Assembly (NCBI GenBank): GCA_000004695.1
Contig: CM000155.2
Span: forward strand, 3,538,380 to 3,602,379
Length of the DNA stretch: 64,000 nt
Reading direction: 5' to 3'
DNA from: Dictyostelium discoideum
Lineage: Eukaryota
How positions within the stretch are numbered: the first letter of the stretch is position 1; each line of letters begins with the position of its first letter. A program made the translations under genes and the position numbers. Positions 15,424 to 48,744 of the stretch are shown in pieces. The notes below the pieces were generated by a model. It saw only the letters and a program-made list of their open reading frames with translations, had not been told where the DNA came from and ran no database searches.

Positions 15424-19703
<4,280 letters not shown>

Positions 19704-19925
19704 AAAATAAAAAAATTGTAAATAAAAAAAAAATTGTAAATAAAAAAAAAAAAAATACATTAAACTATTTTTAGATTTTATTTTTCTTGATCTTTAGTGA
19801 AAACTACTTTTAATCTATCTAATAAACCCCATTTTTTAGATTTCATTTTTGATTGGTTTTTAGTTGATAATAAAATATTTGACTTTTCTACATAGTCTGG
19901 TATAATATTAATTGAACATGGATAC

Positions 19926-19957
<32 letters not shown>

Positions 19958-20013
19958 TAATAAAAAAAGTTAATAAGAATTTTATTATTTCTTTTTTTTT
20001 TTTTTTTTTTTTT

Positions 20014-20274
20014 TTAAACTAAACAAATTACTTTTAATAAATATTTATTTTCTAATAAATCTTTAAAGTTTGAATAAACTTTATCAGCATTGATATTTAA
20101 ATCTATAATCTTTTTATTATCTTTTAAATTTTTATTTTCTCTATATTTTTGTTGAATGCTTGATTTGAAATGACTTGAAATGCAACGATCTTTTCTAGAT
20201 TCATTTAAGAATAATTTACTTGCTCTTATTAAATTTCTATACATATGTATAGTTTTAATTTGTGTGCTATTCAT
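20014..20274 (-). CDS. LYR-motif protein, ISD11/LYRM4-like (Fe-S cluster assembly, NFS1 partner)
   Basis: 86 aa with an ATG start (cat at 20272-20274). It has the LYR signature HMYRNLIRASKLF and …YRENKNLKD…, close to the human LYRM4 segments LYRAMLRESKHF and FRENKNVKD. The size is typical for this family. Confidence 0.7.
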   Translation of the reverse strand: MNSTQIKTIHMYRNLIRASKLFLNESRKDRCISSHFKSSIQQKYRENKNLKDNKKIIDLNINADKVYSNFKDLLENKYLLKVICLV

Positions 20275-20347
20275 TTTATTATTAATATTTTAATTTCTTG
20301 AGAAAATGCTCGTTTTTTTTAATTTTTTTTTTTTTTTTTTTAATTTT

Positions 20348-20397
<50 letters not shown>

Positions 20398-20476
20398 TTA
20401 TTTTCATATTCATTTTTTTTTTATTTTTTATTTTCATATTCATTTTTTTTTTTTTTTTTACAAATAATTAAAATAA

Positions 20477-20902
20477 ATGTTTAAATCAATTAAACAAATT
20501 AAATCTTCAATTGGATTTATAACTACAAATACAACAAGAAGAAATTTTTGTTCAAATAAAATAGGTGGTTTTACAATTAAAAATGTTGAAGATGAATCAA
20601 AGATTAAAATAAATAATGAAATTTCAGAGATAGAGAAATTACGTAAAAAATTATTATATCAAAGTAAAGAAAGAGGAATGTTAGAAAATGATTTATTATT
20701 AGGTAGTTTTGCAACATTAAATATTCATAAACTTACAGAATCACAACTTAGAGATTATAATTTACTCTTACAACAACCAGATCCTGATATTTTTAATTGG
20801 ATTCTAAAAAAGGCTGAAGTCCCTGAAGAATTTGAAACTGAAGTTTTAAAATTAGTTCAACATCATTGTAAAAATGATCCATTGGGTTATACTAGAAAAT
20901 AA
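20477..20902 (+). CDS. sdhaf2: succinate dehydrogenase assembly factor 2 (SDHAF2/Sdh5 family)
   Basis: 141 aa. LLYQSKERGMLENDLLLGSFA…LRDYNLLLQQPDPDIFNWILKKAEVPEEFETEVL aligns with human [22 protein letters not shown]…[34 protein letters not shown]. The N-terminus looks like a mitochondrial presequence (basic, Ser/Thr-rich). Confidence 0.8.
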   Translation: MFKSIKQIKSSIGFITTNTTRRNFCSNKIGGFTIKNVEDESKIKINNEISEIEKLRKKLLYQSKERGMLENDLLLGSFATLNIHKLTESQLRDYNLLLQQPDPDIFNWILKKAEVPEEFETEVLKLVQHHCKNDPLGYTRK

Positions 20903-35726: not shown

Positions 35727-35800
35727 GCCTTAGTAGCTCAGTTGGTATGAGCGTGAGACTGAAGATCTTAAGGTCGCTGGTTCGATCCCGGCCTGAGGCA
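35727..35800 (+). tRNA. tRNA-Phe (anticodon GAA)
   Basis: GCCTTAG|TA|GCTC|AGTTGGTAT|GAGC|G|TGAGA|CTGAAGA|TCTTA|AGGTC|GCTGG|TTCGATC|CCGGC|CTGAGGC|A folds as a canonical cloverleaf with 7/4/5/5-bp stems, U33, G37, a GTTCGATCC B box and an A box TAGCTCAGTTGG. It is very similar to yeast tRNA-Phe. No CCA is encoded. Confidence 0.9.
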
Positions 35801-48361: not shown

Positions 48362-48621
48362 TTGGGGAATTTTTATTTTTATTTTTTTATTTTTTTGGGG
48401 GGATATTTTGAATTAATTATTTAAACCAAAAAAGAATAAATGTTTTCAAATTTACCCTACAATTAATATAGAATAACCTCAACATATCCTTAAATTTGGT
48501 CAAAAATAATGATTTTTTTTTATAGTCTTTTTTTTTTTTACCTAAAAGCGGGGTCTTTTTTTTTTTTTTTTTTTTTTAATAGTCAAAAATAATGAGAAAA
48601 ATAAATAATTTTAAAAAAATA

Positions 48622-48695
48622 TGTCATGGGCAGGACTCGAACCTGCATCTTATTCGTTAGGACCGAACCGCTTTATCCAATTAAGCCACCATGAC
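48622..48695 (-). tRNA. tRNA-Arg (anticodon CCT)
   Basis: The reverse complement GTCATGG|TG|GCTT|AATTGGATA|AAGC|G|GTTCG|GTCCTAA|CGAAT|AAGAT|GCAGG|TTCGAGT|CCTGC|CCATGAC|A forms a cloverleaf with U33-CCT-A37 and a B box GGTTCGAGTCC. Confidence 0.8.
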
Positions 48696-48744
48696 ATTTT
48701 CAACATCATTCATTATCATTTGATCGTACTTAATTTTTTTTTGA

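Follow-up and report, generated by a model that had tools for sequence, protein, structure and literature searches.

Which two mitochondrial factors are encoded head to head in a compact locus of Dictyostelium discoideum, and does the short AT-rich DNA between them couple their expression? The initial annotation of this locus proposed that the minus-strand gene encodes the NFS1-stabilising LYR protein ISD11/LYRM4, and that a promoter shared with SDHAF2 couples the Fe-S and FAD maturation steps of succinate dehydrogenase. We examined the locus within a 64-kb window, which is the whole stretch of DNA (64,000 nucleotides) that was analysed. The account that we favour, and consider likely, is that of a compact divergent pair of unrelated genes, SDHAF2 and an orthologue of UQCC2/Cbp6, whose adjacency came from the joining of two blocks and is most likely incidental.

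Gene models and intergenic spacer

The start codons of the LYR-type gene (20274, minus strand) and of SDHAF2 (20477, plus strand) stand head to head with 202 bp between them (20275..20476). With 5.9% G+C (94% A+T), this spacer agrees with the divergent, AT-rich arrangement first described. Runs of T, 19, 46 and 17 nt long, lie within it, and it must contain both 5′ UTRs and both promoters. A repeat search of the spacer detected no direct-repeat families, its inverted matches being all low-complexity A/T, and scanning the neighbourhood with Rfam and for tRNAs gave nothing over threshold. A match to mir-598 falls within coding repeats of low complexity; at 28.9 bits vs a gathering score of 69, it was set aside as due to chance.

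The plus-strand gene had been correctly named SDHAF2. Its single exon, an ATG ORF at 20477..20902, encodes 141 amino acids that match Pfam Sdh5 (PF03937) over the entire profile (positions 1-76 of 76) with 87.0 bits vs a cutoff of 27 (7.9e-25), and its best PDB matches are human (1e-14) and yeast (2.9e-13) SDHAF2. The hallmark motif of the SDHAF2/Sdh5/SdhE family, RGxxE, is present as RGMLE at residues 66-70 and aligns with the RGMLE of human SDHAF2. The window gene thus has in common with SDHAF2, Sdh5 and bacterial SdhE both the full-length Sdh5 domain and this motif. Like mitochondrial SDHAF2 members, it also carries a basic N-terminal extension, the residue counts of the first 37 positions (7 K+R, 0 D+E, 9 S+T) being consistent with a presequence. 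SDHAF2 orthologues were found in all nine dictyostelids examined, and the Dictyostelium protein is an ordinary one, with nothing notable when compared with known members.

The minus-strand gene called for a different model, as its end had been placed at 20014 and a second exon overlooked. Indeed, the ATG ORF of 86 amino acids at 20014..20274 is exon 1 read on into the intron, its final five residues and stop being intron read-through. From the ORF and the splice model, exon 1 (20032..20274, minus strand) comprises 81 codons for a three-helix LYR-like domain with a MYR motif at residues 11-13 and F22. It is followed by a phase 0 intron of 107 nt (19925..20031, minus strand; GTAATT...AAAAAG, GT..AG, 93% A+T) and by exon 2 (19778..19924, minus strand), with 48 codons and the stop at 19778-19780. 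The intron is required by the annotated 129-aa D. discoideum protein (P0001), with which the spliced product, also of 129 aa, shows 99% identity at 100% coverage. Three other dictyostelids have orthologues of 127-128 aa, the residues spanning the exon junction are invariant among dictyostelid orthologues, and the intron position is common to D. discoideum, D. purpureum, D. firmibasis, D. dimigraforme and T. lacteum. Exon 2 encodes a conserved C-terminal extension, YPCS...P...LLS..Q..K.KKWG..DR, that aligns with the C-terminal half of UQCC2-type proteins. Because of this exon, the pair extends over 19778-20902 and not 20014-20902.

Subfamily of the LYR-type protein

Pfam Complex1_LYR matches the minus-strand ORF (6.3e-09), in line with its initial placement in the LYR superfamily. 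The initial annotation had itself cautioned that the ISD11 call should be verified, and rightly, as the protein groups with UQCC2/Cbp6 and outside the LYRM4 and SDHAF clades. Judged from its sequence, the 129-aa protein is the orthologue of UQCC2 (yeast Cbp6), a complex III factor by homology. Pfam PF20180 (UQCC2_CBP6) matches all four dictyostelid orthologues. Two of the four score above the 27.9-bit cutoff (37.4 bits for P0003 and 34.3 bits for P0004 from T. lacteum) and two below it (24.0 bits, 5.5e-05, for D. discoideum and 24.2 bits for D. purpureum). When the dictyostelid profile was searched against 1.84e9 representatives, we obtained 50 matches, most of them of 115-190 aa and aligned end to end, in one continuous family grading into strong PF20180 members (26/33, best 1.2e-26). 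One match is named Mitochondrial nucleoid factor 1, a synonym of UQCC2, a protein reported to be conserved in Amoebozoa (PMC3873243). No second, better dictyostelid UQCC2 candidate surfaced in this profile search.

Direct comparisons of profiles point the same way. In hhalign, the dictyostelid family aligns with UQCC2-type proteins over 113 columns (columns 3-117 of 127) with 99.4% probability (E = 5.7e-21), and with LYRM4 over 61 columns with 96.1% probability (E = 3.3e-9). The window protein scores 67.3 bits on a UQCC2-type HMM, built from sequences of which 8/9 pass the PF20180 cutoff, vs 21.0 on the LYRM4 HMM, and exon 1 alone scores 47.5 vs 22.4 bits. Human UQCC2 was ranked first by the UQCC2-type HMM and aligns to positions 22-119 of the dictyostelid profile. 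As the intermediate sequences were recovered with the dictyostelid profile itself, these comparisons are partially circular, which is offset by the independent Pfam scores and the one source name. The sequences being short and divergent, the subfamily placement is one by HMM and profile-profile scores.

The architecture of the protein is also that of UQCC2. An AF2 model of the 129 residues (pLDDT 87.2) consists of a LYR bundle (helices 3-21, 32-47 and 53-74) and a structured C-terminal extension (helices 77-81, 91-99, 102-109 and 115-126), and a divergent LYR three-helix bundle with a structured C-terminal region has been described for UQCC2 (bioRxiv 10.1101/2021.09.14.460228). Human UQCC2 (MNF1/M19/C6orf125) and yeast Cbp6, both of PF20180, are alike in size (about 125-135 aa) and likewise combine an LYR-like three-helix bundle at the N-terminus with a conserved extension at the C-terminus. 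The family lacks an N-terminal presequence (PMC3873243), and the dictyostelid LYR helix likewise starts at residue 3. There are differences as well: human UQCC2 has RYR...W at the place of the canonical [L/M]YR...F retained by dictyostelids, and dictyostelids show F-L where the family has W-P, D. discoideum having F and most members W-P.

What, then, speaks for ISD11/LYRM4? LYRM4 is the top solved structure by sequence (E = 0.06 with the single sequence, 5.8e-05 with the profile) and also the nearest when folds are compared, with target-normalised TM values of 0.74-0.79. The window protein has the motifs LYR..LR.SK.F and FRENKN.KD in common with it, and UniRef gives the T. lacteum orthologue the name LYRM4. 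However, LYRM4 comes first in PDB by default because PDB contains no UQCC2/Cbp6 structure, as established with sequence, profile and fold searches; the fold search returned generic LYR proteins only (ISD11, NDUFA6/B9 and L0R8F8), all with E > 0.08. The LYR three-helix fold is indeed shared with LYRM4/ISD11, the partner of NFS1 and acyl-ACP, but the likeness does not extend past the first 60-68 residues, where identity is 26% and the alignment has a gap of 5 residues. Counted over the 61-66 N-terminal columns that align, 26% identity with 20% gaps is under the level of an orthologue. LYRM4 has about 90 aa and ends without the YP...LLS..Q..KWG extension, whereas the 48-residue C-terminal extension of the window protein is conserved and has no counterpart in LYRM4, and the UQCC2-type profile is ahead by 46 bits, its hhalign E-value being 12 orders of magnitude lower.

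Furthermore, D. discoideum possesses a closer ISD11, DDB_G0290725 (XP_635573), which shows 43.9% identity to human LYRM4 over 89% coverage (1e-23) and is, according to that study, the best LYRM4 match of the organism (PMC7554988, Table 1). In our own search with human LYRM4, the best 120 matches listed were all vertebrate. The identification of the window protein as ISD11 is thus refuted as far as in silico work allows, and we regard it as extremely improbable. With it falls the proposed coupling of Fe-S synthesis and flavinylation for succinate dehydrogenase, which does not apply to a LYR-type gene that is UQCC2/Cbp6.

The assignment to UQCC2 rests on the intermediate sequences and on the C-terminal half of the protein, because scores against human sequences alone, like the nearest solved structures, favour LYRM4/ISD11. 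Indeed, among human sequences, the dictyostelid HMM gives 26.1 bits to LYRM4 and 20.2 bits to UQCC2, a slight advantage that comes from the degenerate LYR motif of human UQCC2. Human LYRMs other than LYRM4 score at most 16.6 bits on this HMM. SDHAF1 (LYRM8) and SDHAF3 (ACN9/LYRM10), LYR-type complex II factors that had been put forward as alternative identities, score near zero (2.7 and 1.4 bits, to be taken as a lead more than as a formal test) and have LYR superfamily membership alone in common with the window protein. Pfam Complex1_LYR_2 remains below its cutoff on the D. discoideum protein (20.6-21.3 vs 22.3).

One could also consider the 129-aa protein as a divergent LYRM paralogue, LYRM1-like or lineage-specific, with a client other than cytochrome b or complex III. 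This would fit the D. discoideum and D. purpureum scores under the PF20180 cutoff, a LYR motif more canonical than that of human UQCC2, and the finding that five close amoebozoan or metagenomic relatives (P0009, P0011, P0012, P0015 and P0016) match generic Complex1_LYR or nothing. Yet the alignment with UQCC2-type proteins is collinear and full-length, the columns specific to the family (R..R, N..Y, P and LLS..Q..KWG..R-L) being part of it. Also, as reported above, the profile search drew out a single family continuous with PF20180 and no better UQCC2 candidate among dictyostelids. We therefore hold a divergent paralogue to be unlikely, and UQCC2/Cbp6 to be the better identity. LYRM1 itself, which we tried as a candidate because its tail, YK-IPYPRP, resembles the YLLKYPCS of the window protein, reaches 16.6 bits over the N-terminus only.

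Origin of the head-to-head arrangement

Synteny had been proposed as a check on the pairing, and its outcome is divided. The two genes are adjacent in four group-4 species (D. discoideum, D. firmibasis, D. dimigraforme and D. purpureum), with spacers of 160-238 bp in the three others, but they are not adjacent in P. violaceum, T. lacteum, C. fasciculata, H. album and A. subglobosum, a result with which tblastn agrees. In T. lacteum, the UQCC2-like gene and SDHAF2 lie about 330 kb apart. In group 2, SDHAF2 stands head to head with ELP6, whereas its upstream neighbour in P. violaceum, T. lacteum and C. fasciculata is a gene in tandem on the same strand. A large N/Q-rich gene is the conserved neighbour of the UQCC2-like gene, T. 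lacteum included. Two older synteny blocks meet at the spacer.

These blocks, one with the UQCC2-like gene and the large N/Q-rich gene and the other with SDHAF2, were joined in the ancestor of group-4 Dictyostelium, giving rise to the adjacency. The restriction of the arrangement to group 4 and its absence from five other dictyostelids speak against a coupling that is both ancient and selected. Most likely, the two genes became neighbours as an incidental by-product of the gene density of the genome and, we infer, do not form a selected regulatory unit. Two observations sit less easily with an incidental origin: two OXPHOS assembly factors are uncommon a priori as divergent neighbours, and two short islands of the spacer that are not poly(A/T) are conserved among some group-4 species.

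Short conserved islands and a possible shared promoter

The first of these islands, GAGAAAATGCTCG (20300..20312), is the sole G+C-containing island of the spacer and is located 26-38 nt upstream of the UQCC2-like ATG. It occurs once in the window (0 expected). D. firmibasis and D. dimigraforme preserve it but for 1-2 changes, while in D. purpureum it is not clearly conserved. The second, TTTTCATATTCA, is present twice on the plus strand, at 20401-20412 and 20431-20442 (span 20401..20442), 35-76 nt upstream of the SDHAF2 ATG. This 12-mer duplicate was spotted by eye and then confirmed by a DNA pattern search, with 2 matches vs 0.21 expected, two being reached in 2/100 shuffles. The D. purpureum spacer has one copy of it and that of D. 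dimigraforme a TTTTCA-repeat variant.

With the same gene identities, the spacer of 160-238 bp might be a selected bidirectional promoter that co-regulates a complex II and a complex III factor in group-4 Dictyostelium. Indeed, 202 bp including both 5′ UTRs are too short for fully independent promoters, the arrangement is held in four species, D. purpureum among them, and both islands are conserved amid near-pure A/T. Such a pairing is also rare a priori: if about 55 of some 12,500 genes encode factors of this kind and the genome has about 3,000 divergent pairs, a rough estimate gives about 0.06 such pairs genome-wide. On the other hand, the pair was chosen post hoc, and divergent junctions are common in the window, where they make up roughly 5 of the approximately 21 junctions between genes. 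Each island is near one gene and neither is common to all four species. The junction position of the spacer and the other upstream neighbours of SDHAF2 in the five species without the arrangement also count against this proposal, and general local synteny already predicts conservation within group 4; no conservation beyond local synteny was found, the arrangement being confined to four group-4 species at a block junction.

In D. discoideum, divergent lncRNA-gene neighbours show a median expression correlation near zero (PMC5295588), and our literature search found no expression or annotation report specific to these two Dictyostelium genes. Altogether, we consider selection for a shared promoter rather unlikely, and the incidental adjacency remains our preferred account. 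As a lesser reading, the spacer created in the group-4 ancestor may now serve as a true bidirectional promoter for the two factors, with putative co-regulation. Head-to-head gene pairs of other compact eukaryotic genomes likewise have spacers of about 200 bp that hold both promoters, but here the arrangement is restricted to one dictyostelid group and located at a synteny-block junction.

Cellular implications

The pair appears to link a complex II factor with a complex III factor, and the initial description of both products as small nuclear-encoded mitochondrial assembly factors holds for SDHAF2 (complex II) as for UQCC2/Cbp6 (complex III); both are presumably targeted to mitochondria. By homology, SDHAF2 would promote the covalent attachment of FAD to the complex II flavoprotein. 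From its yeast and human homologues, UQCC2 is expected to act as the partner of UQCC1/Cbp3 on cytochrome b, a product of the mitochondrial genome, stabilising the newly synthesised protein and passing it on to an early complex III intermediate.

The finding is ordinary, since the LYR-type gene is UQCC2/Cbp6 and its pairing with SDHAF2 comes from a rearrangement limited to one dictyostelid lineage; its main value is a correction of annotation. The D. discoideum gene is currently carried as 'hypothetical protein' or as generic Complex1_LYR, and exon 1 read alone invites the same ISD11 error as the UniRef name of the T. lacteum orthologue. Recognised as UQCC2/Cbp6, it becomes a candidate for the early, cytochrome b stage of complex III assembly in Dictyostelium, an established model of mitochondrial disease. 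The inventory of the Fe-S pathway stays correct because ISD11 is DDB_G0290725. The head-to-head arrangement by itself does not reveal a new regulatory principle; it illustrates that rearrangement in a gene-dense genome can bring genes that look functionally related onto one 200-bp spacer.

Finally, the UQCC2/Cbp6 family might ancestrally have been a canonical LYR protein with putative acyl-ACP binding, a suggestion that we make tentatively and think somewhat improbable. If acylated mitochondrial ACP were bound, the biogenesis of cytochrome b, the first step of complex III assembly, could be gated by mitochondrial fatty-acid synthesis. Such gating is known for LYRM-dependent steps in complexes I and II, late complex III and Fe-S synthesis. 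A literature search retrieved no primary report of a UQCC2-ACP interaction. The L-Y-[RK] ... aromatic ... [FY]-[RK]-x-N signature is kept in dictyostelids and most protists (Y in 25/33, R/K in 26/33 and the aromatic residue in 33/33), and the closest solved structural neighbours of the dictyostelid protein are ACP-bound ISD11 chains.

Results

The window is D. discoideum nuclear DNA, rich in A+T and dense in genes, and its encoded proteins match annotated D. discoideum proteins at 99% identity. From the ORF listing we recovered both an 86-aa ATG ORF on the minus strand (20014..20274) and a 141-aa ATG ORF, SDHAF2, on the plus strand (20477..20902), with 202 bp between the two start codons; thus, the coordinates and divergent geometry proposed in the initial annotation are correct as ORFs. 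As a gene extent, 20014-20274 holds at its start only, the ORF being cut short by intron read-through. Indeed, past codon 81 the minus strand reads GTAATT..., then ...AAAAAG 107 nt on, after which the frame resumes for 48 further codons up to a stop at 19778-19780. The A+T content of this intron (20031..19925) is 93%, against 78-82% in the two exons. The spliced product of 129 aa covers 100% of a D. discoideum protein annotated at the same length, with 99% identity; proteins of 127-128 aa in D. purpureum, T. lacteum and a EukProt dictyostelid also match it (55-74% identity). In the orthologue alignment, the residues on either side of the splice junction (ENKY-x-x-K and YPCS) and a large part of exon 2 are invariant, the intron lies at the identical codon in D. 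purpureum, D. firmibasis, D. dimigraforme and T. lacteum, and two wild D. discoideum assemblies, annotated independently, give the same 129-aa product. From the splice signals, the orthologue matches and the conserved intron position, the gene therefore extends over 19778-20274, and VICLV, the final five residues of the 86-aa ORF, is intron read-through.

The length of this intron varies, from ~415 nt in D. dimigraforme (L009 4183-4597) to 107 nt in D. discoideum and ~64 nt in D. firmibasis. Residue 4 of the protein (window 20265) is Thr in the window and Ile in the annotated protein of a wild isolate (P0001); as this is the only difference between the two, it is presumably a strain polymorphism.

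Assignment of the plus-strand gene to SDHAF2 is straightforward from its sequence and upholds the earlier reading. Pfam Sdh5 scores 87 bits on the 141-aa product (cutoff 27) with the entire model covered, and the nearest solved relatives are human SDHAF2 (1e-14), yeast SDHAF2 (2.9e-13) and then bacterial SdhE. The RGxxE motif is RGMLE, at residues 66-70. Residues 1-37 are basic and devoid of acidic residues, a composition that by itself is as expected for a putative presequence. Orthologues were recovered in nine of nine dictyostelid genomes or transcriptomes.

For the LYR protein, several independent lines of evidence from full-length orthologues point to UQCC2/Cbp6 and not to ISD11. First, the Pfam family UQCC2_CBP6 (PF20180, complex III assembly factor) matches all four full-length dictyostelid orthologues, with matches extending into exon 2. 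Against a curated cutoff of 27.9 bits, two orthologues pass (37.4 and 34.3), while D. discoideum (24.0) and D. purpureum (24.2) score just under it; the D. discoideum protein differs from the family in having F-L in place of W-P. Second, a profile of the four orthologues, searched against 1.84 billion representatives, returned 50 matches, most of them 115-190 aa long, with alignments running from about position 3 to ~120. PF20180 members make up 26 of the 33 aligned matches (best E 1.2e-26), and the Capsaspora match carries the name 'Mitochondrial nucleoid factor 1', MNF1 being the former name of UQCC2 (PMC3873243). Third, profile-profile comparison with an opisthokont UQCC2-type alignment gave 99.4% probability (E = 5.7e-21, 113 columns), against 96.1% (E = 3.3e-9, 61 columns) with a LYRM4 alignment. 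Finally, the AlphaFold2 model (pLDDT 87.2) shows a LYR three-helix bundle (3-21, 32-47, 53-74) followed by a structured C-terminal extension. UQCC2 is described as having this architecture, with predicted UQCC1 contacts in both its LYR domain and its C-terminal region (bioRxiv 10.1101/2021.09.14.460228), and Amoebozoa were reported by Tucker et al. to conserve both UQCC2/Cbp6 and UQCC1/Cbp3 (PMC3873243).

The initial annotation had read this protein as ISD11/LYRM4, and some comparisons do lean that way. Among solved structures, exon 1 alone has its best match in LYRM4, weakly (E = 0.06 with the single sequence), and the four-sequence profile reaches E = 5.8e-05 against the LYRM4 structure; every match to LYRM4 structures ends at residue 68 and includes a 5-residue gap. 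In BLASTP, identity to a primate LYRM4 is 26%, with gaps at 20%. A fold search returned ISD11 with a TM of 0.5 on the query over ~75-80 residues, by default, because the PDB holds no UQCC2 structure. Among human proteins, the dictyostelid HMM places LYRM4 (26.1 bits) slightly over UQCC2 (20.2) because the LYR motif of human UQCC2 is degenerate. Conversely, the UQCC2-type HMM ranks human UQCC2 top (65.4 bits), above LYRM4 at 47.6. For the window protein, the UQCC2-type HMM gives 67.3 bits and the LYRM4 HMM 21.0; for the 86-aa ORF alone, the figures are 47.5 and 22.4. Moreover, the bona fide D. discoideum ISD11 is a separate gene, DDB_G0290725 / XP_635573, which is 43.9% identical to human LYRM4 over 89% coverage (1e-23) and matches CDD's LYRM4-specific model at 1.4e-25 (PMC7554988, Table 1). 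On these UQCC2-type scores and this separate gene, the ISD11 identity was abandoned. Other LYR proteins score low on the dictyostelid HMM: 16.6 bits for LYRM1, 2.7 for SDHAF1 and 1.4 for SDHAF3. Any error in the human reference sequences used in these HMM comparisons could only have lowered the scores.

Synteny in other dictyostelids, to which the initial annotation had looked, holds in part: the UQCC2-like/SDHAF2 pair is kept in four group-4 species and absent in five others. The two genes are head to head in D. discoideum (202 bp in the window; 190 and 202 bp in two wild isolates), D. firmibasis (177 bp), D. dimigraforme (160 bp) and D. purpureum (238 bp). They are not adjacent in Polysphondylium violaceum or Cavenderia fasciculata, and lie ~330 kb apart on one contig in Tieghemostelium lacteum; in Heterostelium album and Acytostelium subglobosum, SDHAF2 is instead head to head with ELP6. 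By tblastn, the absent adjacencies are not gene-calling artefacts. The pairing with ELP6 in group 2 shows that SDHAF2 readily gains unrelated divergent partners. This SDHAF2-ELP6 (Elongator subunit) pair occupies L007 6772-8414 and L008 6845-8393, with spacers of 218 bp in H. album and only 52 bp in A. subglobosum.

Each gene also has a convergent neighbour conserved in several species. An N/Q-rich large gene (15447-19703) converges on the UQCC2-like gene and adjoins it in T. lacteum and group 4. Just downstream of SDHAF2 and convergent with it, a small uncharacterised gene is kept from C. fasciculata through D. purpureum, and is therefore its most conserved neighbour (L006 8608-8936, L007 8529-8868, L008 8583-8983, L003 10465-10815 and L001 4788-5149; 81-116 aa). 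Its product carries the motif ...KYPRLNW.LYG...HG.Y.L and belongs to no Pfam family, and the D. discoideum window shows no recognisable homologue. The spacer therefore marks where two older synteny blocks were joined in the group-4 Dictyostelium ancestor, and ordinary local synteny predicts the retention of the pair within group 4.

The large ORF (plus strand, 1418 aa; 1505-1560 aa in wild-isolate annotations) is extremely abundant in N/Q/S homopolymer runs, with conserved blocks at residues 316-746 and 1078-1250 and no Pfam family on record. Its stop codon lies only 74 bp from that of the UQCC2-like gene.

The spacer (20275-20476) has a G+C content of 5.9% and is nearly pure A/T, with plus-strand T runs of 19, 46 and 17 nt. 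The 46-T run is uninterrupted (20350-20395), and all three are in poly-T orientation upstream of SDHAF2. GAGAAAATGCTCG (20300-20312) precedes the UQCC2-like ATG by 26-38 nt and occurs nowhere else in the window (0 expected); D. firmibasis and D. dimigraforme conserve it with 1-2 changes. TTTTCATATTCA is present in two copies (20401 and 20431) against 0.21 expected, two being reached in 2 of 100 shuffles, and once in the D. purpureum spacer. Each motif is near one gene and neither is common to all four species; both could be elements of a UTR or core promoter and do not demonstrate a shared regulatory element.

Discussion

The initial annotation had proposed a coupling of Fe-S supply (ISD11) to flavinylation (SDHAF2) for succinate dehydrogenase through a shared promoter, a proposal left without basis since the LYR gene is not ISD11. 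Judging from sequence, the pair would instead unite a factor for complex II flavinylation with one acting early in complex III (cytochrome b) assembly. As UQCC2 homologues in yeast and human work with UQCC1/Cbp3 (PMC3873243; PMC7312649), the UQCC2-like protein would, by homology, partner UQCC1/Cbp3; together they would stabilise newly made cytochrome b at the mitoribosome exit and pass it to the first complex III intermediate. Protist UQCC2, which keeps a canonical LYR signature, may also bind acyl-ACP; in the literature on UQCC2 and acyl-ACP binding, we found no report for or against.

Divergent junctions are common in the window (roughly 5 of ~21 gene junctions). With ~12,500 genes, D. discoideum would have ~3,000 divergent pairs by rough arithmetic. 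Chance would give ~19 mito-mito divergent pairs if ~8% of genes code for mitochondrial proteins, and ~0.06 pairs of two OXPHOS assembly factors if there are ~55 such factors. The pairing of two OXPHOS assembly factors is thus a mild coincidence, under a description picked after the fact. Each gene is an ordinary member of a known family, and the adjacency of the two is lineage-restricted and most likely incidental.

The main value of this analysis lies in correcting an easily mistaken annotation, one that UniRef already carries for the T. lacteum orthologue. This protein (P0004, L002 6001-6472) is named 'LYR motif-containing protein 4' and yet scores 34.3 bits on PF20180; since it passes the UQCC2_CBP6 cutoff, its name is a probable database misannotation.

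In the neighbourhood of the pair, Rfam and tRNA scans detected no ncRNA and no tRNA. An Rfam mir-598 match at 17730-17827, on both strands, scores 28.9 bits against a gathering score of 69 and falls within the low-complexity coding repeats of the large ORF; it is almost certainly due to chance. Elsewhere in the window lie genes for tRNA-Phe(GAA) (35727-35800, plus strand) and tRNA-Arg(CCT) (48621-48696, minus strand).
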